Assembly: GCA_947470105.1 (NCBI GenBank)
Contig: CANISR010000002.1
Coordinates: 1,583-65,582, forward strand
Origin: Fidelibacterota bacterium
Lineage (GTDB): Bacteria > Pseudomonadota > Alphaproteobacteria > Rhodospirillales > Rhodospirillaceae
Length of the DNA: 64,000 nt
Reading direction: 5' to 3'
Made by a program: the position numbers and the translations under genes
Shown: positions 6,722-48,925 of the stretch, piece after piece
Position numbering within the stretch: position 1 is the first letter of the stretch
Layout: each line of letters begins with the position of its first letter
Notes under the pieces: model-generated
Told to the model about the DNA's origin: nothing
Databases searched by the model: none
The model's input: the letters and a program-made list of their open reading frames with translations, nothing else

Positions 6722-7336
6722 ATGGGCTCACTTCTCTTCGTCACCGCCAGCCTCATGGGCGATAAGTCCCAGTCCCGCCAGGTCGCCAGTGACTATGTTG
6801 CCGCGGCCCGCACCGCCCACCCCGGCCTTAAGGTGGTCGAGCGCCACCTGACGCCGGATAATATTCCGCACCTGGGCATGGATGCTCTCGCCGGCTTTGG
6901 CGCCGGCGCCGACGCCCGCACCCCGGCCCAAACCGCGGCGGTGGCTTTCGCGGACAGCATCATTGAAGAAGTGGAAGCGGCCGACACCATCGTCATCGCG
7001 GTGCCTATGTATAACTTCTCGGTACCGTCGACCTTGAAGGCCTGGCTCGATCACGTGGCCCGCGCCGGCCGCACGTTCAAGTATTCGGCCAACGGCCCGG
7101 AAGGTCAGCTCAAGGGCAAACGCGTGGTGGTGGTCGAAAGCCGCGGCGGGTTCTACACCGGCGACAGCCCGGCCAAAGGCATGGATTTCCAGGAACCCTA
7201 TCTGCGCGCCTTCTTCGGGTTCCTCGGCATCACCGACGTGAGCTTTGTGCAGGTCGAAGGCCAGGCCATCGGCCCGGACGTGGCCGCCAAAGGCTTGGCC
7301 GCCGCCAAGACGGCGGTCACACGCCTCGCGGCGTAA
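6722..7336 (+). CDS. azoR: FMN-dependent NADH-azoreductase
   Basis: 204 aa. SQSRQ near the N-terminus and PMYNFSVPSTLKAWLD flavodoxin-like motif are characteristic of AzoR/AcpD. AGGAG precedes the ATG. Confidence 0.85.
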   Translation: MGSLLFVTASLMGDKSQSRQVASDYVAAARTAHPGLKVVERHLTPDNIPHLGMDALAGFGAGADARTPAQTAAVAFADSIIEEVEAADTIVIAVPMYNFSVPSTLKAWLDHVARAGRTFKYSANGPEGQLKGKRVVVVESRGGFYTGDSPAKGMDFQEPYLRAFFGFLGITDVSFVQVEGQAIGPDVAAKGLAAAKTAVTRLAA

Positions 7337-7359
7337 TGACGTGGAGACCTGGTGCGACC

Positions 7360-8775
7360 TTAGATTGCCCCCTGCGCGGCGAGCATCTGCAGCACATGGT
7401 CGCGCTGGGTCTCCACGACTTTCACGTTGCTCTCGAGATTGAGTTCCGTGAACACCTGAGCCGCCTGCTCGAAAGCATGCGCCGCTTCGCGCAGACAATC
7501 GGCGTTGCGGGCAGCGACACCTTTTTCCTTCAACGCCGCGCCGATATTCGCCAACGCGGTGGCCCACACCAGCGGCGCTTTGGCGCGGCTGCGTGAGTCG
7601 GCGATCTTGAGGAAGATGCTCACGGCCTTGTCGAACAGGCTGGACTGCTGCGTCAGGCGGCCCATGGTGACGAGCAATCCGCCCAATGAATTCTGCACAT
7701 CCGCCCAGCGTTCCGGCGATTCCGTGATGGTCCAGATGGCGGTGGCGGCGGAAAAAGCGTCGGCAGCATCCTTAAGGTGAATGGTTTCGCCGCTCTGCTG
7801 TGCGAGGGCGTGAAGCGCCAGGCCCAGGCGCACTTTCAGCGCCGCGTATTCATCGGCGAACACTTCTTTACGCACCATGCCTAAGGCCGTGCGGTAGTAC
7901 TCAACGGTGCGGTCGCCGAGATTGCCGCGCAAGGTCAGGTCACCGATCACCGACATGGCGTCGGCGATATGGGTGCCGATCATGGCGCGCTCGTGCTCGG
8001 GGAAAGCGTCGTTGCCGAGAATCAAAGCGCCTTGGTAAATGGTCACCGCGCGTTGCAAAACCTTCAGATCGCCGGTGCGGACACCGTCCAAGAGCAAGAG
8101 AGCGGCGTAGCAGGCTTGCGCGGTGGCGCATTGGGCCACGGTGCCTTCGAAGTCGCCTTCGGCGAAACGGATGGCGGCCTTCAACACCGGGCGGAACAGA
8201 GTGGCGCGGGCGCGGATGCCGTCGGCGGTGTCCACATTGACGGCGGCAAGCGCCGCGCCGAACACCAGATCGCCGGTGGCGTCGTCGAACAGCGCCGGCA
8301 CTTCAAGACGCTCGAGGGCCGAGAAGGTGGCACTTTGCGGATGCAGCGGCGTCGCGCGGGAGAGGAACCGCAAACGCCAGGACACATTGGAAGCTGAGGC
8401 GGGACCGCCGGGCAACGCCAGGCTCTCGCCCCAGATCAACAGGTCGGCGCCTTCGCGCTTCAACCAGCGGCGGCCGAGATCCACGGCCATGGAGACGAAC
8501 AGCGCCTGGCTGTAGTCGGCGCCGGAAACGGTGAGCGGCCGATCGGCGATGGCGATGGACACGCCCATGCGGCCCGAGAGTCTGTCCTGGATGTGGCGCG
8601 CCGCCAGGCCGGAATGATCCCCGGCCAGGGGGCTGATCAGAATGCGAAGAGGTTCGACGCCGTAAAGCGCGTCCTCGGGTTCGTTGGCGCCAAGGGGCGT
8701 GAAGGCCGGCTCCGAAGGCCCAGGGCCCCGCAGCAGCAAATCTAAAAACGCCCCAACCTTGGACCCCAGCGGCAT
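7360..8775 (-). CDS. hypothetical protein, unassigned N-terminal domain plus C-terminal TPR-like helical repeats
   Basis: 471-aa ORF with no competing annotated gene. C-terminal half has repeated W-A-x-x-Q/A-N-x-G-x-x-L helical-pair motifs (WADVQNSLGGLL, WATALANIGAAL) of the TPR_10/12 kind. No family recognised for residues 1-200. Confidence 0.6.
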   Translation of the reverse strand: MPLGSKVGAFLDLLLRGPGPSEPAFTPLGANEPEDALYGVEPLRILISPLAGDHSGLAARHIQDRLSGRMGVSIAIADRPLTVSGADYSQALFVSMAVDLGRRWLKREGADLLIWGESLALPGGPASASNVSWRLRFLSRATPLHPQSATFSALERLEVPALFDDATGDLVFGAALAAVNVDTADGIRARATLFRPVLKAAIRFAEGDFEGTVAQCATAQACYAALLLLDGVRTGDLKVLQRAVTIYQGALILGNDAFPEHERAMIGTHIADAMSVIGDLTLRGNLGDRTVEYYRTALGMVRKEVFADEYAALKVRLGLALHALAQQSGETIHLKDAADAFSAATAIWTITESPERWADVQNSLGGLLVTMGRLTQQSSLFDKAVSIFLKIADSRSRAKAPLVWATALANIGAALKEKGVAARNADCLREAAHAFEQAAQVFTELNLESNVKVVETQRDHVLQMLAAQGAI

Positions 8776-8899
8776 TCTGCACGCTCCCCAAACGCAAACG
8801 ATCTTAAACGGGCTGCAGAGAGACAGCCCGAATCAACTGCTTAGGGGGTGGCGTTTAAAAATCCATTGAGACTCGTCAAACGAATCGACGAATCAGCAC

Positions 8900-9082
8900 T
8901 CAAAAGTCAGAGCAGCGGCCTTTGCGCTCCCAGTCGCCGAACCGGGTGGGTTCAGGACCCTTGGGGCCGCCTATTTCTGTAACAGGCGCACCCTCGGTTT
9001 TTGGCCCATGTGGCTGCGGCGCCGCAGGCTGAATGGCGGCGGCGGCAGGAGAGAGGGCGAGGGGTTTGGGTGTGGTCATCAC
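8900..9082 (-). CDS. DUF1674 domain protein (SDHAF4-like)
   Basis: 60 aa ending GGPKGPEPTRFGDWERKGRCSDF, the conserved C-terminal signature of DUF1674 / succinate dehydrogenase assembly factor 4-like proteins. Confidence 0.7.
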   Translation of the reverse strand: MMTTPKPLALSPAAAAIQPAAPQPHGPKTEGAPVTEIGGPKGPEPTRFGDWERKGRCSDF

Positions 9083-9105
9083 GTTGTACTGATCATACCG
9101 TTAGT

Positions 9106-9132
9106 CTTGAGATCGTGAATTTACCACATAGA
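9106..9132 (+). promoter_or_regulatory. weak candidate sigma-32-type promoter upstream of htpX
   Basis: CTTGAG-N12-CCACATAGA resembles the heat-shock consensus CTTGAA-N13-17-CCCCATnTA. The spacer is one short and the -10 is imperfect. htpX is a heat-shock regulon member in E. coli. Confidence 0.2.
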
Positions 9133-9232
9133 TCAGTGCTGTATCAAAGCGACGTCTGAACTTTGTTTTGTCGCTTATTCTAAGGCGAACCGCGCACACT
9201 TCGCCGGAAAATGCTCAAGGAGCCTCGATTCC

Positions 9233-10186
9233 ATGAATACCATGCGCGCTGGGCTTTTGCTGGCCGCGCTCACCGCCATCTTCGTTGCCGTCGGTTATTT
9301 CATCGGCGGCGGTCAGGGCATGGTCATCGCCTTCGGTGTGGCGGTGGCGACCAATGCCTTCGCTTATTGGAACTCCGACAAGATGGTCCTGCGCATGTAC
9401 GGCGCGCGGGAAGTGAATGCGGCCTCCGCGCCGGAGTTCTACGCCCTGGTGGCGCGGCTTGCCGCGCGGGCCAAGCTGCCCATGCCCAAGGTCTATATTC
9501 TCGACAGCGATCAGCCCAACGCCTTCGCCACCGGCCGCGACCCTGAACATGCGGCAGTAGCGGCCAGCAGCGGTTTGCTGCGCATTCTCAATGAACGCGA
9601 AATCGCCGGCGTCATGGCCCATGAACTCAGCCATGTACGCAACCGCGACACGCTGATCATGACAATCACCGCCACGCTCGCCGGCGCCATCGGCATGCTG
9701 GCGCATTTCGCGTTCTTCCTCGGCGGCCGGCGCGATGAGCGCGGTAGCGGCAACGCCATTGCCGCCATCGCCATGATGATCATCGCCCCCCTGGCGGCCG
9801 CATTGGTGCAGTTCGCCATCTCGCGCACCCGGGAATACGGCGCCGACGCCGGCGGCGCGGAGATCAGCGGCGATCCATTGGCTTTGGCGTCGGCGCTGTC
9901 GAAGCTGGAGCAGGCCGCCCACCAGGTGCCCAACGTCCAGGCCGAAGCCAACCCGGCCACGGCCCATATGTTCATCGTCAATCCGCTCAGCGGCCAGGGC
10001 ACGGACAATCTGTTCTCCACCCACCCGGCGGCGGGCAACCGCATCGCCCGCCTGCAGCAGATCGCCCGCAGCATGAATGCCGCCGCAGCACCTTCGAATC
10101 CGGTGCCGTCGCGCAGCGGAGCTCGCAGCGGGCCATGGGGCGAAGATGCGCCCCCCGTCCGCCGGCCCAAGGGTCCTTGGGGCTAA
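9233..10186 (+). CDS. htpX: zinc metalloprotease HtpX (M48 family)
   Basis: 317 aa. N-terminal TM helices, HELSH zinc motif, and HtpX-like [26 protein letters not shown] block. Confidence 0.9.
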
Positions 10187-22315: not shown

Positions 22316-23620
22316 CTACCCGGGCTTGTTCGCGAGCTCAAGCGCGCCAGAGGCCAGCGCCCGCGCATAGCGCGCGAGCATCCGCACATCGACCGCTTCG
22401 GGCCAGCGGTCGTTGATATTGTGATAGGCGTCGCTATCGCCGGCGATGGTGACAAAATTCCCGCCAGCCCGCTGCACCCGCCCCGACTCGCCGCGCGCGG
22501 GTGACGTATGGGCGGATGTGGCGTTCACGGCCAGCCCTTCCCTTTTCAACGCGGCAAGGGCCCATTGCTCCAGGGCGTCATTGGAGGCATGGAGAACGTG
22601 GGCTTGGTGCGGCGAGCCGATGTCCGAGCCAAGGAAGATCCACGCAAGCGCCCCCTTCGCCAGATCCGGCCGGGTCTTGAGATAAGCGTCAATGCCGATG
22701 GCCCCAAGCTCATGGCCGCTGAAAGCGGCAAACAGGCAGTCCCGCGCCGGCTTACTGGCCGCGACCACGCGCATCATCTCCAGCCAGCAGGCCATGCGGC
22801 TGCCCTGCTCGGTGACCGACTGAAACCAGGCGCTGCGTGGGCCCATGACGACGAGCGGCGGCAACGACGGGTCGCGGCCCGCGATCTTCGCCGTGACATT
22901 GGCGGCCTGCGCGGGCGTCCGGGTCACATGAGCGACGAGCTTTGTGGTCGCTCCGGCCGCCGCCATCTGCTTCAGAAACTCGCTTTCGGCGCTCGAGATT
23001 TGCAGCAACGGCGGGCCGGAAGGTTTTGTGAAACTGTTGGCGTTGAGCAGGAACAGGCCCGGCCGGATGCCCCGCGTCAGCACGACAACGGCTTTGTGGG
23101 CGCTTCGGCGCGCTTCGGCCACCTGCTTGCTCAGCTCCAGCCCCGGCGTGCTGAGGGCGTAAGGCTCAGACTCCGCCAACCCGATCTCCGCGTCGCTGCC
23201 GAGGGGACCAAGTTTGCCGGTGACGCCGTCCGGTCCGGTAAAGGCCGCGTCAAAAAGTGGAAGGCCCTCGATGCGCCGATCGTTGACGGTGACGTAAGCC
23301 GTCTGCGGATCAACCCTGTCGAGTGCGAAGCGTTCAAGCGACGCCTCGACATTGAAGGTGCGCGCTTCCCGAACCAGCCATGTCGCCGATGCTTCATCGC
23401 CCGCGGTCGCCGTACGGTGGTTGCCTTGCCCATCGAAAGCCTCCATCCAGGCGGCGATTCGCTGCTCGGCGGCCTCGGCTGGTGCGACATTCTGTGCAAA
23501 CAGGACTTTGCTCCCGCCCACGGACCCGGCGAGCGCAACCGTGGCGAGACCGCCAAGCTCAATAAAATGCCGACGTTTCATTTCGTGCCCCATGATTTCC
23601 GAATCCAACCTATCGGACAT
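22316..23620 (-). CDS. Tat-signal periplasmic protein, M28 aminopeptidase-like (tentative)
   Basis: KRRHFIELGGLATVALAG twin-arginine leader, 14 codons into the longest ORF (likely true start 23581 or 23593). FSGHELGAIG resembles the M28 F-x-x-EE-x-GL-x-G motif but has HE in place of EE. Confidence 0.45.
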   Translation of the reverse strand: MSDRLDSEIMGHEMKRRHFIELGGLATVALAGSVGGSKVLFAQNVAPAEAAEQRIAAWMEAFDGQGNHRTATAGDEASATWLVREARTFNVEASLERFALDRVDPQTAYVTVNDRRIEGLPLFDAAFTGPDGVTGKLGPLGSDAEIGLAESEPYALSTPGLELSKQVAEARRSAHKAVVVLTRGIRPGLFLLNANSFTKPSGPPLLQISSAESEFLKQMAAAGATTKLVAHVTRTPAQAANVTAKIAGRDPSLPPLVVMGPRSAWFQSVTEQGSRMACWLEMMRVVAASKPARDCLFAAFSGHELGAIGIDAYLKTRPDLAKGALAWIFLGSDIGSPHQAHVLHASNDALEQWALAALKREGLAVNATSAHTSPARGESGRVQRAGGNFVTIAGDSDAYHNINDRWPEAVDVRMLARYARALASGALELANKPG

Positions 23621-23701: not shown

Positions 23702-24691
23702 TCACGCCGCGACGGGCGCGCTCTTTGTCGGCAGAAAGGCGTCCGAGAAAATATGCTTGGAAGCCACGCCGCCGAGGAACGCTTTGCGCTTGAGCGCGGT
23801 GACGAACTCGGGTGCGCCGCATAGAAACAGGTGGGTTCGGCTCTTGTCGCCGGGCAGGATCGACATGGTGATCTCCTCGATATTGCCGGCGCGATAGAAC
23901 CGCTCCGCCTCACCCTTCAGAACGCAGGGGATGTAGTGGAAGTTGGGATGCCGCAGGGCCAGGTCCTGCAGCTCCGCGACGAGATACAAGTCGGCCTCCC
24001 GTAAAGCGCCGTGCAGCAGGCGGATTTCCCCTGTATGGCCGTGCGCGAGCGCCTGTCTGGCGACACCGTAGAGCGGCGCCAATCCAGTGCCGGTGCCCGC
24101 CAACACGATCGGATAGGCGCCGTCGCCACGGACGTAGAAGCAGCTCCCTGCCGGGCCGCGGATCGTCACCGGCTCGCCGATGCCGGCCTTTTCAATAAAG
24201 CCGCTCATGAGGCCGTCTTTCAACAAACGGATATGAAGCTCGATATGGCCATCCCGCGCAGGGTCGTTGGCTACCGAGTAGCTGCGCGCCACGCCGTCAC
24301 GGTTGATGAGCGTCAGGTATTGCCCCGGCTCGCATGAAAAATCGCCGTCGGGCTTCAGGTAAAGGCGCAGGACATTGTGGTTGAGCCGGTCTTTGCCTGC
24401 GATCACGGCGGGCAGGTCGCCGCCGGCGGCCCCCGGAAAGGCCACGCTGATGTCCTGGTCGGATTTGCACTGGCAGGCCAGAACGAACTTCTGCTGCTGG
24501 AGTGTGGGCTTCAGGCCTATCTGAGCGGCCTCGGGCGCCGGTCCCGCCGTGACTTGCATCAGGCAGGACTGGCAGACCCCGGATCTGCAGGAGTGCGGTA
24601 CGCTGACGCCATTGCGCGACAGGCAATCGAGCAGTGATTCGCCGTCCTGGGACAGGAAGGACGTGTCGCCGATGGAGATGCGTACCGCCAT
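23702..24691 (-). CDS. 2Fe-2S ferredoxin / FNR-type FAD-NAD(P)H oxidoreductase fusion
   Basis: 329 aa. N-terminal plant-type ferredoxin cysteines CRSGVCQSC...C, RSYS FAD motif (R-x-Y-S), LAGTGTGLAP NAD(P)H motif. Lies 23 bp downstream of glbN on the same strand. Confidence 0.85.
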   Translation of the reverse strand: MAVRISIGDTSFLSQDGESLLDCLSRNGVSVPHSCRSGVCQSCLMQVTAGPAPEAAQIGLKPTLQQQKFVLACQCKSDQDISVAFPGAAGGDLPAVIAGKDRLNHNVLRLYLKPDGDFSCEPGQYLTLINRDGVARSYSVANDPARDGHIELHIRLLKDGLMSGFIEKAGIGEPVTIRGPAGSCFYVRGDGAYPIVLAGTGTGLAPLYGVARQALAHGHTGEIRLLHGALREADLYLVAELQDLALRHPNFHYIPCVLKGEAERFYRAGNIEEITMSILPGDKSRTHLFLCGAPEFVTALKRKAFLGGVASKHIFSDAFLPTKSAPVAA

Positions 24692-24714
24692 GTGAAGTGT
24701 TCCTGCGGCCTGCT

Positions 24715-25080
24715 CTAGCGGTTCAGCACGTCCTTGCGGACGCTTTCCGCAATGGCCGCCACTTCGGCGATGTCGGCGGCGGCAACGCCCAGTTCGGACA
24801 GCGTGCTCCCGAGAATCTCGATAATCGCATCGACATGGGCGTCGTTCAGGCCGCGGGCCACCAGGTGTTTATGCCCATCGCGCATGCTCTTGCCGGTGTA
24901 GGAATTGGGGCCGCCGAAGGCCATGGTCAGGAAGCCCTTCTGCTTGGCGATCTGCCGGTCCATGTCGACGTCGTCGAAGAAGCCATTGACGCGATCGTCG
25001 GCGAGCACCTTGCGATAGAAGATGTCGACTGCCGCATTGACGGCATTCGCGCCGCCCAGTCTTTCGTAAAGTGACGCCAT
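24715..25080 (-). CDS. glbN: group I truncated haemoglobin (trHbN)
   Basis: 121 aa. LYERLGG and AFGGPNSYTG glycine motifs, B10 Tyr in DIFYRKV, proximal His in MRDGHKHL. Length and pattern match 2-on-2 globins. Confidence 0.9.
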   Translation of the reverse strand: MASLYERLGGANAVNAAVDIFYRKVLADDRVNGFFDDVDMDRQIAKQKGFLTMAFGGPNSYTGKSMRDGHKHLVARGLNDAHVDAIIEILGSTLSELGVAAADIAEVAAIAESVRKDVLNR

Positions 25081-25116
25081 GGTGGTTTTCTCCCGTTGGT
25101 GGTGACTGAAGGATGG

Positions 25117-25518
25117 TTAGGTAGACGCGATGGAGGCCAGGGTTTTGCCCGCCAAAGATTTGAAAAAGGCTGCAGTGGCGTCACGCAGCACGTGCTTGAG
25201 CTGACAACTTGACGTGACGCGGCAGGTGTTGCGGACTTTGTCGAAGCACTCGACCACATGAAAATCGGGCTCCGTGCGCTTGATCAGCGCCGCGATCTCA
25301 ATGGCTTCGGCGGGCTTGGCGAGGCGTAGGCCGCCGCCCTTGCCGCGCGTGGAATGCACGTAGCCGAGCTTGACCAGATTGTGCGCGACCTTGACCAGAT
25401 GGGGCTTCGAGACCCCGTACCACTGGGCGATATCGCCGATGGTGCAGGTCTCATCCGGATGCTGCGCGAGATAGAGCAGCAGGCGCAGGGAATAGTCGGA
25501 GAATTGAGTCAATCGCAT
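25117..25518 (-). CDS. nsrR: Rrf2 family transcriptional regulator, NsrR-like NO sensor
   Basis: MRLTQFSDYSLRLLLYLA wHTH start. Three clustered C-terminal cysteines (VECF...NTCRVTSSCQL) in the Fe-S ligand positions of NsrR/IscR-type Rrf2 proteins. ATG at 25518 chosen; the ORF-track TTG at 25539 lies inside the operator dyad. Confidence 0.85.
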   Translation of the reverse strand: MRLTQFSDYSLRLLLYLAQHPDETCTIGDIAQWYGVSKPHLVKVAHNLVKLGYVHSTRGKGGGLRLAKPAEAIEIAALIKRTEPDFHVVECFDKVRNTCRVTSSCQLKHVLRDATAAFFKSLAGKTLASIAST

Positions 25519-25539
25519 CGCGGTCTCTCGATCCGGCAA

Positions 25540-25562
25540 AACATATATTCTGGATATATGTT
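25540..25562 (-). promoter_or_regulatory. perfect 9-5-9 AT-rich inverted repeat, candidate NsrR (Rrf2) operator overlapping the -10 region
   Basis: AACATATAT-tctgg-ATATATGTT read directly, 22 bp upstream of the nsrR ATG. It is the only AT-rich stretch in the spacer. Confidence 0.5.
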
Positions 25563-25578: not shown

Positions 25579-25592
25579 TTGATCCGGATCAA
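25579..25592 (-). promoter_or_regulatory. perfect CRP/FNR-family box (TTGAT-N4-ATCAA)
   Basis: TTGATCCGGATCAA read directly. Centre is about 67 nt upstream of the nsrR ATG and 34.5 bp from the centre of the AT-rich dyad. Confidence 0.6.
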
Positions 25593-25687: not shown

Positions 25688-26179
25688 TTACTGCGGGGGT
25701 TTGCCCGGCGCGGGCTGATGCGAAGCGGGGGCGCCGTCGGCGCCGATTTCCCCGGTATTTGTCCCGGGCGGCGGGGCAGGATCTGCTCCCGGCTGACATG
25801 CCGGCGAGGTCGCCGCCCTTTCGCTTTTGAGGAAAGCGATCACGTCGTTGCGGTCGTTTTCGTCGAACATGCCGGCGAAACCCATCTTGGTGCCGGGCAT
25901 GTTCATGATCGGAAACGTCAGGAACTCATGCAGGTGCTTTTCGTCCCATGCAAAGCCGGCGGCGCGCAGGGTATCTGAATAGGCAAAGCCCTCTACCGAT
26001 GCGGCTTTGCGCCCGACCACGCCGCAATGAGGCGGCCCCATCAGCGTCCGCTGCGGCGCGTGGCAGCCGGCGCACTCCTTATAAAGAACCGCGCCATGGG
26101 TTGAATCCGCTGCCGAGGCAGGCAGGCCAAGCCCCAGGGCTGCGACGAAAACGAGCGAGGCAGTGGTCGATTTGCGCAT
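25688..26179 (-). CDS. class I c-type cytochrome (c2/c550-like) with Pro-rich C-terminal tail
   Basis: Signal peptide MRKSTTASLVFVAALGLGLPASA, CAGCH haem-binding motif, distal MPGTKM Met region. Low-complexity P/A/G tail. Confidence 0.85.
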   Translation of the reverse strand: MRKSTTASLVFVAALGLGLPASAADSTHGAVLYKECAGCHAPQRTLMGPPHCGVVGRKAASVEGFAYSDTLRAAGFAWDEKHLHEFLTFPIMNMPGTKMGFAGMFDENDRNDVIAFLKSERAATSPACQPGADPAPPPGTNTGEIGADGAPASHQPAPGKPPQ

Positions 26180-26331
26180 TGCATCTCTCTCCCGGAGGCA
26201 TTTGTCCGCAAGCTGCCGCTCAAAGACAGGCAGGGATAGCCCGGAAAATTACCTAAGTAGTTCCCGCAGCTGTGCGGCCCCGGGGGGCGGTTCTAGAAAG
26301 ACCGCAGTCTAAGATCGGGAGGACTACTGCC

Positions 26332-27441
26332 ATGCCTATTGCGTACGTCCGGGCTGCGCTTCTGGCGCTGCTGGCTGCCTTTGTCGCTGCCCCCGCCCAT
26401 GCCGAGCTCCGAAAGTTCGAGATGAACATCCAGGAGGTCGAGCTTCAGGTCGCCCCAGGCTTCAAAGCCAAGGTCTGGGCCTTCAACGGCCAAGTGCCCG
26501 GGCCGCTCATGCACGTAAGGGAAGGCGACGACGTCGAGGTCGTGGTGCACAACAAGAGCGATCAGGCTCACTCCGTCCATTGGCACGGCATTTACCAGAC
26601 CCAGAGCTGGGAGTCGGACGGCACGCCCAATATCAGCCAGAAGAACATTCTTCCCGGCGAGAGCTTCACCTACCGGTTCGTCGCCGATAAGGCCGGCAGC
26701 CTTTGGTACCACTGCCACACCAATGTTGCCGAACATCTCGGCTTGCGCGGCATGTTCGGCCCCCTGATTGTCGATCCAAAAAAGCCCGCCAAACTTGAGC
26801 GGGAGGTCACTAAGCAGGCGATCCTCATGTTCTCGGGTTGGAACGATCGGGTTGCTCAGACCCTCGGCCAAGGCATAAAGCCCGGCGAGGCGCTCCAGTA
26901 CTTCTCGATCAACGGCAAGTCCATGCCGATGAATCAGCCGATCCGGGTGAAGAAGGGGGACGTGCTGCGCTTGCGCCTTTATGCGGCCACCATCCCCGTC
27001 GCCTTCCATCTCCACGGTCATGACCTGCTGGTCACACATAAGGACGGCAATGCCCTCGATCATCCGTATCTTGCCGATGTTGTCGGCATGCAGCCGGGCG
27101 AACGCTTCGATGTGATCGTGCGCATGAATAACCCGGGTCTGTGGGCCAGCCATGACCATATCGACCACCACACCACCAACAACGGCATGGAGCACGGCGG
27201 TTCAATGCTGACGGTGGAGTACGACGGGGTGGAGCGCCCCAGCTTCTACATGTGGAAGAACATCGCCTTCCAGCCGGACTTCTACATGAGCGAGTCCCTG
27301 GCGAAGCCCTACGGCCTGCACAATATCGAGGTCCTGCGTGGGGCCGTCGCGGGCCCTGGTTCGCCGTTTAATGCAAGTCCACCGGCGGCGGAACACAATC
27401 ACGACGCGCCGCCCATGACCGCACCGGTGAAACGACCCTAA
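26332..27441 (+). CDS. two-domain multicopper oxidase (type-1 Cu site in the N-terminal cupredoxin domain)
   Basis: Sec signal MPIAYVRAALLALLAAFVAAPAHA. HSVHWHG, WYHCHTNVAEHLGLRGM (H-C-H...M) in domain 1. FHLHGH and SHDHIDHH in domain 2. Size fits two, not three, cupredoxin domains. ATG at 26332 preceded by GGGAGGA. Confidence 0.8.
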   Translation: MPIAYVRAALLALLAAFVAAPAHAELRKFEMNIQEVELQVAPGFKAKVWAFNGQVPGPLMHVREGDDVEVVVHNKSDQAHSVHWHGIYQTQSWESDGTPNISQKNILPGESFTYRFVADKAGSLWYHCHTNVAEHLGLRGMFGPLIVDPKKPAKLEREVTKQAILMFSGWNDRVAQTLGQGIKPGEALQYFSINGKSMPMNQPIRVKKGDVLRLRLYAATIPVAFHLHGHDLLVTHKDGNALDHPYLADVVGMQPGERFDVIVRMNNPGLWASHDHIDHHTTNNGMEHGGSMLTVEYDGVERPSFYMWKNIAFQPDFYMSESLAKPYGLHNIEVLRGAVAGPGSPFNASPPAAEHNHDAPPMTAPVKRP

Positions 27442-27670: not shown

Positions 27671-28102
27671 CTATTTCGGACGCGCCGGGCGCTCAGGCAA
27701 AGTAACGCCCGCGGGCAACGTCGGCCGCTCGCCCGGCTTAAATCCTGTCGGCAGGGTCGGACGCTGCGGCAGCGTGACGCCGGCGGGCAACGCGGGCCGC
27801 TCGCCCGGCTTGAACCCTGTCGGCAGGGTCGGACGCTGCGGCGGCGTGACGCCGGCCGGCAACGTGGGCCGCTCGCCCGGCTTGAACCCTGTCGGCAGGG
27901 TCGGACGCTGCGGCAGGGTGACGCCCGCAGGCAACGCTGGCAAGTCGCCGGGCTTGAAGCCGGCCGGGGGCGTCGGCATTTTGCCCGTCGGCGGCGCCAT
28001 CCCAGTCCGCGGCGGCGGCGTGTTGGGGTTGGCGGCGACCGCAACGCCCGCGGTGAGCAAAAGAGTGGCGCACACGGACGCCGTGATGAGGCTCTTGGAC
28101 AT
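27671..28102 (-). CDS. secreted proline-rich tandem-repeat protein
   Basis: 143 aa from the ATG at 28102 (GGGGGAA lies 6 nt upstream). Signal peptide MSKSLITASVCATLLLTAGVAVAA, then four 24-aa repeats PTGFKPGERPTLPAGVTLPQRPTL. Other frames across the repeats lack a signal peptide. Confidence 0.7.
   Translation of the reverse strand: MSKSLITASVCATLLLTAGVAVAANPNTPPPRTGMAPPTGKMPTPPAGFKPGDLPALPAGVTLPQRPTLPTGFKPGERPTLPAGVTPPQRPTLPTGFKPGERPALPAGVTLPQRPTLPTGFKPGERPTLPAGVTLPERPARPK
27683..27970. repeat. 72-bp tandem repeat x4 (with 36-bp sub-period), coding
   Basis: GGCCGCTCGCCCGGCTT recurs at 27723, 27795 and 27867, an exact 72-bp period. Units are nearly identical. Confidence 0.9.
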
Positions 28103-28281
28103 TTGCATTTCCCCCAATGCTTATGATGTTAAGCGACAAACGCTCGCAACGTTAAGCGGCGAAACGCTAGCAACCGAGGCCTGCAGGGTCAATGGACAGT
28201 CAGGGGTTTATTACCCAGGGCTTTGAGGGGCCGCTGGGGCCCCGCGCCCGAAGGGCGCAAAAGATAGAATCGATCCCGCCC

Positions 28282-28369: not shown

Positions 28370-28370
<1 letters not shown>
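28326..28370. terminator. 45-bp perfect palindrome abutting the tRNA-Ala 3' end (probable tRNA terminator hairpin)
   Basis: ATCAACATGACAAGTCGACCCA-c-TGGGTCGACTTGTCATGTTGAT. 22-nt arms with a single-nt centre. The last base is A76 of the encoded CCA. Confidence 0.5.
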
Positions 28371-28445
<75 letters not shown>

Positions 28446-42238: not shown

Positions 42239-43681
42239 GTGAAGCGAGTCGACGAAGCAGCCGTCAACCAGGCTGAGTGGGACCGGGTCAAAACCCGCCT
42301 CAAGCAGGAATTCGGCGAATCCGCTTTCAAGAGCTGGGTGATTCCCATCACCGCCACCGCGCTGCGCGACGGCGAGGTCGAGCTGTCGGTACCAACGCGT
42401 TTCATGCGCGACTGGATCACCACCCATTATGCCGAACGGATTCGCGCCTTGTGGAGCGGCGAAAATCCGGGCGTGCGCAAAGTGACTTTGAAGGTCGAAA
42501 CGGGGAAAGTCGAAGCCGGCAAAACCGAAGCGATGAAAGCCGAAGCGAAAGTGGACGCGCCCGCGAAGGCGCCCAGCGCCAGCGCCGCCGCGCGCATGGT
42601 CGCAGCCCGGCCCATGCCGGCTGGCTTCATGACCTCGCCCGCGCCGGCAGGCACGGACCTCTCGGCGCCCCTCGACGCGCGCTATGTGTTCGAAAATTTC
42701 GTCGTCGGTAAGCCGAACGAATTCGCTTACGCCGCCGCCAAGCGCGTGGCCGAATCCGACCAGGTCAGCTTCAACCCGCTGTTCCTCTACGGCGGCGTCG
42801 GCCTGGGCAAGACCCATCTCATGCATGCGATCGCCTGGGAAATCCGCACCCGTACGCCCCATCGCAAGGTGGTCTACCTGTCGGCGGAAAAATTCATGTA
42901 CAGCTTTGTCCGCGCCCTGCGGAACCAGGACACGGTCTCCTTCAAGGAGCAGTTCCGCTCGGTTGACGTGCTGATGATCGACGACGTCCAGTTCATCGCC
43001 GGCAAGGACGCCACCCAGGAAGAGTTCTTCCACACTTTCAACGCCCTGGTGGACCAGGGCCGCCAGATCGTGCTGTCGGCGGACAAGTCGCCCTCGAGCC
43101 TGGAAGAAATCGGCGACCGCCTGCGCTCCCGCCTGGGCCAGGGCCTGGTGGCCGACCTGCACCCCACCACATTCGAGCTGCGCCTGGGCATTCTCGATGC
43201 CAAGGCCGAACAGCTCGGCGTCCAGGTGCCCCAGCGGGTGAAGGAGTTCCTCGCCCACAAGATCACCTCCAATGTCCGCGAGCTGGAAGGCGCTTTGACC
43301 CGCCTCGTGGCCCACGCCCAACTGGTGGGCGGCGCGCTCACCCTGGAAACCACCCAGGACCTGCTCCAGGACCTGCTCCGGGCCCACGACCGCCGCCTGA
43401 CCATGGAAGAGATCCAGAAGCGGGTGGCCGAACATTTCAAGATCCGGGTCTCGGACATGAGCTCGGCGCGTCGGTCCCGCGCCGTGGCCCGCCCCCGCCA
43501 GGTGGCCATGTACCTCTCGAAGCAGCTCACCTCCCGCTCGCTGCCGGAAATCGGCCGGGCCTTCGGCGGCCGCGACCATACGACCGTGATGCATGCGGTG
43601 CGTAAGATCGAGGAACTGGTGAAGCTCGACAGCGCGTTCGCGGAAGACGTCGAGCTTCTGACGCGGATGCTTGAGAGCTAG
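42239..43681 (+). CDS. dnaA: chromosomal replication initiator protein DnaA
   Basis: 480 aa, GTG start. Walker A GGVGLGKTHL, AAA+ body, C-terminal DNA-binding domain (RDHTTVMHAVRKI). Confidence 0.97.
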   Translation: MKRVDEAAVNQAEWDRVKTRLKQEFGESAFKSWVIPITATALRDGEVELSVPTRFMRDWITTHYAERIRALWSGENPGVRKVTLKVETGKVEAGKTEAMKAEAKVDAPAKAPSASAAARMVAARPMPAGFMTSPAPAGTDLSAPLDARYVFENFVVGKPNEFAYAAAKRVAESDQVSFNPLFLYGGVGLGKTHLMHAIAWEIRTRTPHRKVVYLSAEKFMYSFVRALRNQDTVSFKEQFRSVDVLMIDDVQFIAGKDATQEEFFHTFNALVDQGRQIVLSADKSPSSLEEIGDRLRSRLGQGLVADLHPTTFELRLGILDAKAEQLGVQVPQRVKEFLAHKITSNVRELEGALTRLVAHAQLVGGALTLETTQDLLQDLLRAHDRRLTMEEIQKRVAEHFKIRVSDMSSARRSRAVARPRQVAMYLSKQLTSRSLPEIGRAFGGRDHTTVMHAVRKIEELVKLDSAFAEDVELLTRMLES

Positions 43682-44000: not shown

Positions 44001-45119
44001 ATGAAACTGATCATCGAACGCGCCGCACTTCTCAAGTCCTTGGGCCATGTGCAGAGCGTGGTGGAACGGCGCAACACCATCCCGATCCTGTCCAACGTGC
44101 GCATCGACGCCGCCAAGGGGGCCTTGTCCCTCAACGCCACCGACATGGACATCGAGATCACCGAGTCCACCAGCGCCGAGGTCGGCAAAGGCGGCGCCAC
44201 GACCGCGCCCGCCCACACCCTCTATGACATCGTGCGCAAGCTTCCGGACGGCGCCCAGGTGGAGATCAACGCCTCGGGCGACGGCGGACAGATCTCGCTC
44301 GCGGCCGGCCGCTCGCGCTTCAGCCTGGCCTGCCTGCCGGTGGAAGACTTCCCGGCCATGGCCGGCGGCGACTTCTCACACACCTTCTCCATCGGTGCGG
44401 CCGACCTGCGCGGCCTTATCGACCGCACGCGCTTTGCCATCTCGACGGAAGAGACCCGCTATTACCTGAACGGCATCTACATCCACGCCACCAAGAGCGA
44501 AGGCGTCGCGGTGTTGCGCGCCGTCGCTACCGACGGCCACCGCCTGGCCCGTGTGGAACTGCCGCTGCCCAAGGGTGCGGCGTCCATGCCCGGCGTCATC
44601 GTGCCGCGCAAAGCCGTGGTGGAAGTGCGCAAGCTGATCGAGGAAACCGAAGGCGAAATCACCATTTCCCTGTCGGACGCCAAGATCAAATTCGCCTTCG
44701 ACAACGTGGCGCTGACGTCGAAACTCATCGACGGCACCTTCCCCGACTACGAGCGCGTGATCCCCACCGGCAACGACAAGGTGCTGGAAGCCGAGCGTAA
44801 ACCGCTGTTCGACGCGGTCGACCGCGTCTCGGCCATCAGCTCGGAGAAGTCGCGCTCCATCAAGATGATGTGCGAAAAGGGCCTCATCACCCTGTCGGCG
44901 TCCAGCCCTGAAGCCGGCAGCGCCAGCGAAGAAGTGGAAGCCCGCTATACCGCGAGCACCATCGAGATCGGCTTCAACTCGCGCTATCTGCTCGAGATCC
45001 TGGGCCAGATCGAGGGCGACGCCGCCCGCTTCACCATGGCGGACGCGGCCTCGCCGACGGTGATCCGCGACGTGGCCGACGGTTCGGCCATGTACGTGCT
45101 GATGCCGATGCGGGTGTGA
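44001..45119 (+). CDS. dnaN: DNA polymerase III subunit beta
   Basis: 372 aa. MKLIIERAALLKSLGHVQSVVERRNTIPILSNV start and three-domain sliding-clamp pattern. Confidence 0.97.
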   Translation: MKLIIERAALLKSLGHVQSVVERRNTIPILSNVRIDAAKGALSLNATDMDIEITESTSAEVGKGGATTAPAHTLYDIVRKLPDGAQVEINASGDGGQISLAAGRSRFSLACLPVEDFPAMAGGDFSHTFSIGAADLRGLIDRTRFAISTEETRYYLNGIYIHATKSEGVAVLRAVATDGHRLARVELPLPKGAASMPGVIVPRKAVVEVRKLIEETEGEITISLSDAKIKFAFDNVALTSKLIDGTFPDYERVIPTGNDKVLEAERKPLFDAVDRVSAISSEKSRSIKMMCEKGLITLSASSPEAGSASEEVEARYTASTIEIGFNSRYLLEILGQIEGDAARFTMADAASPTVIRDVADGSAMYVLMPMRV

Positions 45120-46330
45120 AGGCAGAACCTCCACACCCTTCACCCGATCCTACGGCCGCTGCCCCTGTGGCGAAGATCGGCATTACCCGCCTCACCCTCA
45201 CCGATTTCCGTTCCTACGGCTATCTGCGGCTCGATACGGACACGCGGCCCGTGGTCATCTGCGGGCGTAACGGCGCGGGCAAGACCAATCTCCTTGAAGC
45301 GCTCTCCTTCCTGGCGCCGGGCCGGGGCTTGCGCGGCGCGCGGCTCTCGGATGTGGGCCGGAACGCCCGCGTGTCCGAGGGCCTGACGGCGGCTCATGTG
45401 CCATGGGGCGTTGCCGGGCAACTCTCCACACCCCATGGTGCGATAGACCTCGGCACCGGCCTCGCCGCCGGCGGCGGTGAGCGCCGGACAGTCAAAATCA
45501 ACGGACAGCCCGCCAAGGGCGCAGGCGCGCTTGCGACGCACCTGGGCATCGTCTGGCTTACGCCGGCCATGGACCGGCTGTTCCTGGAAGGCCCGGCCGG
45601 GCGGCGCAAATTCCTCGACCGCCTGGTTACGGCCTTTGACGCCGACCACGCCGGGCGCATTGCCGCCTATGACCACGCTTACCGGCAGCGCCTGCGCCTG
45701 CTCAAAACCGGCGGCGGCGACCCGGCTTGGTTCGCGGCCCTTGAGGACACTATGGCCCGCCACGGCGTGGCCCTGGCGGCGGGGCGCTGCGATCTGGTGG
45801 GCCGTTTGAGCCGGGAACTGGCCGGCAACCGCGCCAGCCCCTTTCCGGCAGCGACCCTGGCCCTGGTGGGCGCCATCGACGCCTGGCTGCAGGAGATGCC
45901 CGCGGTGGATGCCGAGGACGCCGTGCGCCGCAGCCTCTGGGATGAACGCCGGGGTATCAGTGGCGCCGGCGCGGGGCCGCATCGCTCAGATCTCGGCGTG
46001 GCGATGGTCGCGCCCGGCCATGCCTCTCACGGCCAGCCGGCGGCTTTGTGCTCCACCGGCGAGCAGAAAGCCCTGCTGATCGCCATCCTGTTCGCGGCGG
46101 CGCGGTTGCAGCGGGCCAAGCGGGGGCACGCGCCGGTGTTGCTGCTGGACGAAATCGCGGCCCATCTCGACAAGGACCGCCGCGCCGCACTGTTCGCGGA
46201 AATCCTGGCACTCGGCGCCCAAGCCTGGATGACCGGCACCGATATGGGCGTGTTTCGCGAGCTCGGTGACTCAGCCCAGTTTCTCACCGCCGAAAACGGC
46301 GATTTAGGGCCCGAAAAAAGCCCTGTTTGA
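45116..46330 (+). CDS. recF: DNA replication and repair protein RecF
   Basis: GTG start overlapping the dnaN stop (GTGTGA). LTDFRSY, Walker A GRNGAGKTNLLEA, signature-like STGEQKALL, Walker B VLLLDEI. About 20-aa N-terminal extension. Confidence 0.93.
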   Translation: MKAEPPHPSPDPTAAAPVAKIGITRLTLTDFRSYGYLRLDTDTRPVVICGRNGAGKTNLLEALSFLAPGRGLRGARLSDVGRNARVSEGLTAAHVPWGVAGQLSTPHGAIDLGTGLAAGGGERRTVKINGQPAKGAGALATHLGIVWLTPAMDRLFLEGPAGRRKFLDRLVTAFDADHAGRIAAYDHAYRQRLRLLKTGGGDPAWFAALEDTMARHGVALAAGRCDLVGRLSRELAGNRASPFPAATLALVGAIDAWLQEMPAVDAEDAVRRSLWDERRGISGAGAGPHRSDLGVAMVAPGHASHGQPAALCSTGEQKALLIAILFAAARLQRAKRGHAPVLLLDEIAAHLDKDRRAALFAEILALGAQAWMTGTDMGVFRELGDSAQFLTAENGDLGPEKSPV

Positions 46331-46387
46331 GGGCGACTTTCAGGGCCAATTATCGTGCAAAAATCGCTCAAACACCTTATCTTATAA

Positions 46388-48925
<2,538 letters not shown>

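Follow-up and report, generated by a model that had tools for sequence, protein, structure and literature searches.

An NsrR-linked gene pair of a group-I truncated haemoglobin and a [2Fe-2S]/FAD reductase as a candidate two-component nitric oxide dioxygenase conserved across bacterial phyla

Globins readily dioxygenate nitric oxide (NO) in vitro, but in vivo the step that limits their turnover is the re-reduction of the haem. The bacterial flavohaemoglobin Hmp, which is under NsrR regulation, carries its electron supply within a single chain that joins a 3-on-3 globin to a module of the FNR reductase superfamily with flavin adenine dinucleotide (FAD) and NAD(P)H, by which the globin haem is reduced for the conversion of NO and O2 to nitrate without any iron-sulphur (Fe-S) cluster. 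Small globins instead need a separate flavoprotein for NO dioxygenation, and the pairings described so far, such as Chlamydomonas THB1 with nitrate reductase or Bradyrhizobium Bjgb with Flp, involve reductases of other families and no conserved two-gene unit. For group-I truncated haemoglobins (trHbN), including the one of M. tuberculosis, we know of no native reductase that has been established, and cognate globin reductases have been explicitly called for (Smagghe et al. 2008, PMC2323109). The closest described case is that of Legionella pneumophila, for which an NsrR-controlled glbN-lpg2536 pair was predicted and Hmp-like NO oxidation proposed in a genus reported at the time to lack Hmp (Rodionov et al. 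2005, PMC1274295), and which was later cited in a review as evidence for FNR-like electron donors of truncated haemoglobins (Gardner 2012, PMC3820574). Here, we analyse a related three-gene locus, nsrR-glbN-reductase, on a 64-kb stretch of contig CANISR010000002.1 (assembly GCA_947470105.1; this whole stretch is called the window below) from an uncultured alphaproteobacterium.

All three genes lie on the minus strand. The first gene of the unit encodes an NsrR-like regulator of 133 amino acids (25117..25518; Pfam Rrf2), followed after 36 bp by glbN for a group-I truncated (2-on-2) haemoglobin of 121 amino acids (24715..25080; Pfam Bac_globin) and after another 23 bp by the gene for an NAD(P)H:[2Fe-2S]/FAD reductase of 329 amino acids in which an N-terminal plant-type ferredoxin domain precedes an FNR module (23702..24691). 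A preliminary description of this DNA had named the same three genes with the same strand and spacing, in exact agreement with the list of open reading frames (ORFs) of the window, and the profile searches that it had proposed recovered all expected Pfam families, i.e., Rrf2 for the regulator, Bac_globin for the globin and Fer2, FAD_binding_6 and NAD_binding_1 for the reductase. The ORF of the regulator extends slightly further (25117..25539, minus strand), and we took the ATG at 25518 as its start because it aligns to residue 1 of S. coelicolor NsrR, because the same 133-residue product is called on identical public contigs, and because the longer ORF would put the operator described below within coding sequence. 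A ribosome-binding site is present before each gene, e.g., GGGAG ca. 9 nt before the ATG of glbN, and the two gaps offer too little space for a promoter or operator. Due to these short gaps, the individual ribosome-binding sites and the lack of room for internal control elements, co-transcription of all three genes is likely. The identical sequence is also found on GCA_947473825.1, and the closest relatives of the locus in representative genomes are metagenome-assembled genomes (MAGs) of Rhodospirillaceae. We consider it reasonably probable that the three genes form a self-contained NO-stress module under one promoter in which the globin and the reductase work together as a two-component NO dioxygenase.

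The resemblance to the Legionella case is close. There, a group-I "cyanoglobin" gene is directly followed by a ferredoxin-reductase gene with an NsrR box upstream, and the locus of L. drozanskii, which we used as a proxy for lpg2536, has the same architecture as the window, with 74% identity for the globin and 44% each for the reductase and the Rrf2 protein, and with the box GATGTAT-ttcaa-ATGCATC. The loci differ in that nsrR is divergent in Legionella but the first gene of the same unit in the window, which also has an ATATAT variant of the operator and an additional FNR-type box. The novelty that the preliminary description had claimed when it did not recognise the arrangement as a characterised system was therefore overstated in view of the prediction from 2005, but our literature search for a biochemical or genetic test of the pair returned only this prediction and the review of 2012. 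Compared to Hmp, the window shares NsrR-type regulation and an FNR-superfamily module proposed to reduce a globin haem for the same chemistry, but divides these functions between two proteins, has a 2-on-2 globin and includes a [2Fe-2S] relay. The NCBIfam model of Hmp matches the window reductase in its FNR part only (54 bits, cut-off 432).

Support for the proposed partnership comes from the conservation of the gene pair, which we surveyed from both sides. Among the best 80 relatives of the reductase (one genome per species in GTDB, 40-68% identical), a trHbN gene lies directly upstream on the same strand in 77, while one of the three exceptions is a locus ended by a contig edge and the other two are orphans (L070 and L076). 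From the globin side, a metagenome scan yielded 52 loci, and the counts given here use globins with enough downstream sequence. The reductase gene comes directly next in 34 of the 38 globins that are at least 66% identical and ca. 400 bp downstream in two more, but it follows none of the eight globins that are at most 60% identical. This split ties the reductase to one highly conserved trHbN subfamily, with a mean pairwise difference among loci of 33% for the globin versus 48% for the reductase. The distances of the three proteins also co-vary across loci (Mantel r = 0.66-0.91). Pairing is thus kept in related genomes from either direction (77/80 and 36/38), and the closest relatives of the reductase are encoded next to a trHbN rather than with oxygenase subunits. 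The preliminary description had named a lack of pairing in related genomes and a constant association of the reductase with oxygenase subunits as findings that would speak against its proposal, and neither was seen. Pfam searches of flanking genes, made for the four neighbours in the window, returned no oxygenase.

Both surveys together show the pair in more than 110 independent loci, mostly with gaps of 8-70 bp between globin and reductase, and spanning at least five bacterial phyla. Proteobacterial carriers include Alpha-, Beta- (Nitrotoga, Gallionellaceae), Gamma- (Legionella, Thiotrichales and others) and Zetaproteobacteria, and the pair is further found in many cultured Myxococcota and in Acidobacteriota, Planctomycetota and Hydrogenedentota. 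Of the 77 paired loci from the reductase side, 61 have an Rrf2 gene next to the pair, though in three different arrangements: nsrR is the first gene in 15 mostly alphaproteobacterial loci, as it is in the window, it is divergent in 11 loci, among them those of Legionella and Hydrogenedentota, and it follows the reductase gene in 35 loci, mainly of Myxococcota and Acidobacteriota. This pattern bears on the possibility that the two proteins are co-regulated without being redox partners, with the reductase given to another NO-stress task, e.g., the reduction of flavin or ferric iron or the repair of Fe-S clusters, and the globin only buffering or sensing NO or O2. Several unrelated repair genes belong to NsrR regulons (PMC1274295), and the closest globin-less homologues L070 and L076 stand alone, L070 among housekeeping genes (RNase G, Maf and HisA genes rather than oxygenase genes), which indicates that this fold does not depend on a globin to work. 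However, a merely shared regulation does not sit well with a near-obligate adjacency in both directions across phyla at such short distances or with a pair that stays together while the regulator changes its position, and non-catalytic buffering removes little NO (Smagghe 2008, PMC2323109), so that we regard this explanation as very unlikely.

A few loci depart from the simple two-gene layout. Two tandem trHbN genes precede the reductase gene in a Mariprofundaceae MAG (L066, 5051..5914) and on a metagenome contig (L119, 106..1028). In L. drozanskii (L080), a gene for a quinol-type NO reductase (qNor; 768 amino acids; COX1 and NorB cytochrome-c-like domains; 6959..9265, minus strand) adjoins the pair in convergent orientation, and qNor is also found next to the pair in L077 and L068, which are gammaproteobacterial or unclassified MAGs. 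With adjacency in only these three loci, we rejected qNor as a regular neighbour. We also rejected a larger conserved unit since the M28-like, MFS and multicopper oxidase neighbours recur in none of the 80 related loci.

The globin matches Pfam Bac_globin (E = 2e-16) and has Synechocystis GlbN as its top solved relative (1s69, E = 2e-34), followed by the proteins of Tetrahymena, Chlamydomonas (THB1; 4xdi, E = 9e-25) and M. tuberculosis (HbN). All of its top 25 solved relatives belong to group I (E = 2e-34 to 1e-10), with the group-II HbO at ca. 1e-4. Judged by these relationships, the protein is a group-I truncated haemoglobin and closer to this group than to groups II or III. The preliminary description had come to the same assignment from Gly-Gly motifs, a Tyr at B10 and a proximal His, and the alignment to solved group-I proteins bears it out with glycine pairs at Gly9-Gly10 and Gly56-Gly57 and a haem pocket composed of Tyr22 (B10), Phe35 (CD1), Gln43 (E7), Lys46 (E10), Gln47 (E11) and His70 (F8). 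Tyr B10, Phe CD1, Gln E7, Gln E11 and His F8 are kept in all 113 reductase-paired globins and Lys E10 in 111 of them. The combination of Tyr B10, Gln E7 and Gln E11 is the O2-stabilising distal set of NO-dioxygenating trHbNs, and Lys at E10 is shared with Chlamydomonas THB1. Synechocystis GlbN uses His46 and His117 for bis-His coordination and a covalent haem link, and neither residue is present at the aligned positions of the window globin.

For the reductase, the preliminary description had deduced a fusion of a 2Fe-2S ferredoxin with an FNR module, which is what domains, cofactor motifs and predicted fold all point to. The three Pfam domains Fer2 (residues 11-76), FAD_binding_6 (97-186) and NAD_binding_1 (199-300) follow one another, and 25 homologues without exception share the cysteines C35, C40, C43 and C73 as well as the motifs R136-x-Y138-S139 and T200-G-T-G-L204-x-P206. 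The top solved match is GcoB, a reductase of a cytochrome P450, to which the protein aligns over its full length (5ogx, E = 6e-37), followed by MMOR, BenC and T4moF. In line with this, a Foldseek search with the AlphaFold (AF2) model of the reductase (mean confidence score pLDDT 85) again returned 5ogx as the best hit (E = 8e-28, TM score 0.70), with a TM score of 0.65 for 1krh, and superposed the FNR module on the reductase domain of Hmp (1gvh). According to the model, the protein thus has the three-domain Fer2-FNR fold of BenC/GcoB-type reductases. Like BenC, MMOR, T4moF and GcoB, it has the same order of domains, the same cofactor motifs and the same fold, but its partner gene encodes a trHbN and not a Rieske, diiron or P450 oxygenase. 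No NCBIfam equivalog cut-off was reached by the reductase, with PRK05713 as the best model (190 bits, cut-off 338). GcoB feeds electrons directly to its P450 haem protein without a separate ferredoxin, and electron transfer from the window reductase to a haem is plausible because this nearest solved homologue is itself the reductase of a haem protein.

We also considered whether a form of the reductase without the Fer2 domain exists, as suggested by homologues of 251-291 amino acids, but rejected it as these proved to be annotation artefacts. P0063 does have the sequence that encodes Fer2, but its gene call had been shortened by a contig end or an insertion sequence (IS), and in P0099 the reductase gene is split by a frameshift. 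The [2Fe-2S] domain therefore is a constant part of the system. At locus L138 (377..2546), IS transposase genes (HTH_Tnp_1, rve) lie directly upstream of the reductase gene and the partner globin is missing, i.e., this operon appears to have been disrupted by insertion.

Upstream of nsrR, the window contains a perfect 9+9 palindrome, AACATATAT-ccaga-ATATATGTT (25540..25562, not assigned to a strand), that we predict to be an NsrR-type operator. Its centre precedes the nsrR start codon by 33 nt, and the AACATATAT-N5-ATATATGTT pattern has a single match in the window and none in 100 window shuffles. No further NsrR box was found in the 64-kb window with up to three mismatches. Compared to the published NsrR consensus gATGyAT-N5-ATrCATc (PMC1274295), the window box cATATAT-N5-ATATATg differs by a change of G4 to A, and this variant recurs in the closest relatives such as L003 (CATATAT-ttcaa-ATATATG). 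Many other loci, including those of Myxococcota and Legionella, have canonical boxes, e.g., GATGCAT-ttaaa-ATGCATC, at 40-85 nt before the operon. Counted over the loci, the 200 nt before the first gene contain the relaxed pattern ATRYAT-N5-ATRYAT at a density of 2.0 per kb, compared to 0.005 per kb in 1 Mb of flanking DNA, which amounts to a ca. 400-fold enrichment upstream of the operons.

The regulator itself matches Pfam Rrf2 over nearly its entire length (PF02082, E = 3e-34, residues 3-131). Its best solved relative is NsrR of S. coelicolor (5n07, E = 6e-18; versus 5e-6 for IscR), and its D8 and C-x7-C-x5-C align to D8 and to the Cys cluster ligands of this protein. At the position of Asp8, RirA has Asn and IscR has Arg. 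Asp8 is present in all 79 linked Rrf2 proteins that could be extracted, and a C-x4-, C-x6- or C-x7-C-x5-C arrangement in 76 of them. With Asp8, three cysteines and a conserved NsrR-box operator, the NsrR-type label of the preliminary description is supported, even though the protein scores below the NCBIfam cut-off. It obtains 117 bits with the NsrR model (cut-off 182) and 117.5 bits with the RirA model (cut-off 193), and the two scores are likewise equal and below the cut-offs in 10 orthologues. NsrR of L. drozanskii also remains under the NsrR cut-off (132 bits), and since this protein is from a genus with a published NsrR regulon, the NCBIfam model is narrow. We see the regulator as a probable [4Fe-4S] NO sensor and autorepressor.

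The equal scores do leave some ground for a system without any link to NO, in which an iron- or redox-responsive regulator of the RirA/IscR type would control a haem oxygenase or peroxidase composed of the globin and the reductase, analogous to a P450 with its GcoB-type reductase. The nearest solved relative of the reductase fits this idea, and a peroxidase role has been reported for a truncated haemoglobin of Roseobacter (PMC4319818). However, all linked regulators have the Asp that RirA and IscR lack, the operators fit the published NsrR motif and not IscR or RirA boxes, and the regulator is far closer to solved NsrR than to IscR. We thus consider this the least probable of the explanations discussed here and highly unlikely.

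A second predicted site, which the preliminary description had not mentioned, lies further upstream, an FNR/FixK/Dnr-type box (named for the oxygen- or NO-responsive regulators and not for the reductase superfamily) with the sequence TTGATCCGGATCAA (25579..25592, not assigned to a strand). No other perfect TTGAT-N4-ATCAA exists in the 64-kb window. The box is centred 67.5 nt before the nsrR start codon, and its centre precedes that of the NsrR box by 34.5 bp. A box of this type with zero or one mismatch is found 60-88 nt before nsrR in L001, L003, L004, L006, L008-L011, L020 and L089, and the two boxes have similar spacing in the alphaproteobacterial loci of the same gene order. In an alignment of 10-12 alphaproteobacterial loci (A2), they are the only conserved upstream blocks, whereas the FNR-type box is absent from the versions of Myxococcota, Acidobacteriota and Gammaproteobacteria. 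This distribution suggests that, in the alphaproteobacterial lineage, control by an activator responding to low oxygen or NO may have been added to NsrR repression. A similar layout is known from the enterobacterial hcp promoter, which is activated by FNR and repressed by NsrR (PMC1274295), and by this resemblance the window promoter may function in the same way.

Expression at low oxygen would also suit another chemistry of the same two partners, i.e., an NO reductase or denitrosylase activity that turns NO to N2O, or the handling of nitrite or hydroxylamine. Beyond the conserved FNR/FixK-type box of the alphaproteobacterial clade, this alternative can draw on the few loci in which qNor adjoins the pair and on a recently described NsrR-regulated haemoglobin of Acinetobacter that is reported to act both as NO dioxygenase and as NO reductase (PMC11836069). 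However, the pair occurs without an FNR-type box in Myxococcota, Acidobacteriota and Gammaproteobacteria, a second NO reductase would be redundant where qNor is adjacent, and the distal residues that are invariant in the paired globins are those that stabilise O2. We therefore think of this chemistry as unlikely, though less so than the other two alternatives.

The preliminary description had predicted a two-component NO-detoxifying system, and this prediction has gained comparative support from the observed gene order, domains, cofactor motifs, cross-phylum synteny and conserved operators, from which we infer that the genes are co-transcribed, that the regulator binds DNA and senses NO, that electrons flow in the proposed direction and that the globin acts as an NO dioxygenase. 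Under this proposal of a two-component NO dioxygenase, holo-NsrR would sit on the 23-bp palindrome when NO is absent, probably overlapping the -10/+1 region, and repress all three genes including its own. NO would then nitrosylate the Fe-S cluster, and the release of NsrR from the DNA would derepress nsrR, glbN and the reductase gene, while in the alphaproteobacterial lineage an activator of the FNR/FixK/Dnr type bound ca. 35 bp further upstream could add low-oxygen- or NO-dependent activation. Oxy-ferrous GlbN would convert NO to nitrate, which leaves its haem in the ferric state. For recycling, the reductase would take a hydride from NAD(P)H onto FAD and pass single electrons via its N-terminal [2Fe-2S] cluster to the globin haem. 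The two proteins would jointly take the place of Hmp, but with a globin of the 2-on-2 type and with an Fe-S relay in addition.

Several observations weigh against this proposal. No sigma-70-like promoter was detected for the unit and no terminator after the reductase gene; the sole terminator-like match lies within the reductase gene but on the other strand, and the RNA that follows this gene shows no better folding than shuffled sequence (z = 0.15). No Rrf2 gene adjoins the pair in 16 of the 77 paired loci, and the regulator of the window falls short of the NsrR equivalog cut-off with a score that RirA equals. The co-variation of protein distances, which counts in favour of the partnership, may reflect shared phylogeny only. 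Moreover, an FNR-type box points to expression when oxygen is scarce, a condition in which a dioxygenase would be limited by its second substrate. Finally, a literature search that did not extend to most subscription journals brought up no study of expression, DNA binding or enzyme activity for any member of the system. Nevertheless, each of the alternatives set out above is disfavoured by the bidirectional adjacency across phyla and by the NsrR-specific features of the loci.

Several further features of the window lie outside the module. Directly upstream of nsrR lies a gene for a secreted c-type cytochrome with a CxxCH motif (163 amino acids; 25688..26179, minus strand) that recurs in only one of the 80 related loci, L002, where it is located between nsrR and glbN. 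Beyond it follows a divergent gene for a two-domain multicopper oxidase (389 amino acids; 26272..27441, plus strand), and no NsrR box was found between these two genes. These neighbours recall the Nitrosomonas nirK cluster with its NsrR-linked multicopper-oxidase and cytochrome-c genes. Downstream of the reductase, a gene with weak similarity to M28 peptidases (22316..23620, minus strand) starts 81-108 bp after the reductase stop codon, without a terminator found in between, and an internal start would give its product a twin-arginine-like signal (MKRRHFIELGG...). Further away, an ORF for a Pro-rich secreted protein (27671..28117, minus strand) without a Pfam match contains a 72-bp tandem repeat (27705..27958, 3.5 copies, 90% matches) that encodes the unit PTLPTGFKPGERPxLPAGVTxPQR. 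As for RNA genes, a search of the window yielded a single one, for tRNA-Ala (CGC), at 28370..28445 on the minus strand. The row of dnaN, recF and gyrB (44001..48925, plus strand), with an ORF for 480 amino acids just upstream of dnaN (42239..43681, plus strand), indicates that the window probably spans the chromosomal origin region. The distance between dnaN and the glbN unit is ca. 19 kb.

What may be new about these results is the breadth of conservation, the delineation of a trHbN subfamily linked to its reductase, and the alphaproteobacterial promoter type with nsrR inside the operon and an FNR-type box. In 2005, an alphaproteobacterial NsrR had been reported in one strain only (PMC1274295). 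Our survey widens a prediction made for a single genus to a cassette found across phyla and adds the alphaproteobacterial variant to it. Over more than 110 loci, the reductase gene is locked to a single trHbN subfamily, which makes its product the obvious candidate for the cognate reductase of these globins, and cultivable, tractable carriers such as Legionella, Myxococcus, Corallococcus and Archangium make the question directly testable. With somewhat less confidence than for the module as such, we lean towards the view that this would be the first native dedicated reductase of a group-I truncated haemoglobin and, together with its globin, a third architecture of bacterial NO dioxygenases, encoded as an NsrR-controlled cassette in at least five phyla and wired to FNR-type control in Alphaproteobacteria to remove NO when oxygen is low. 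For bacteria without Hmp, this module may be the main defence against NO.

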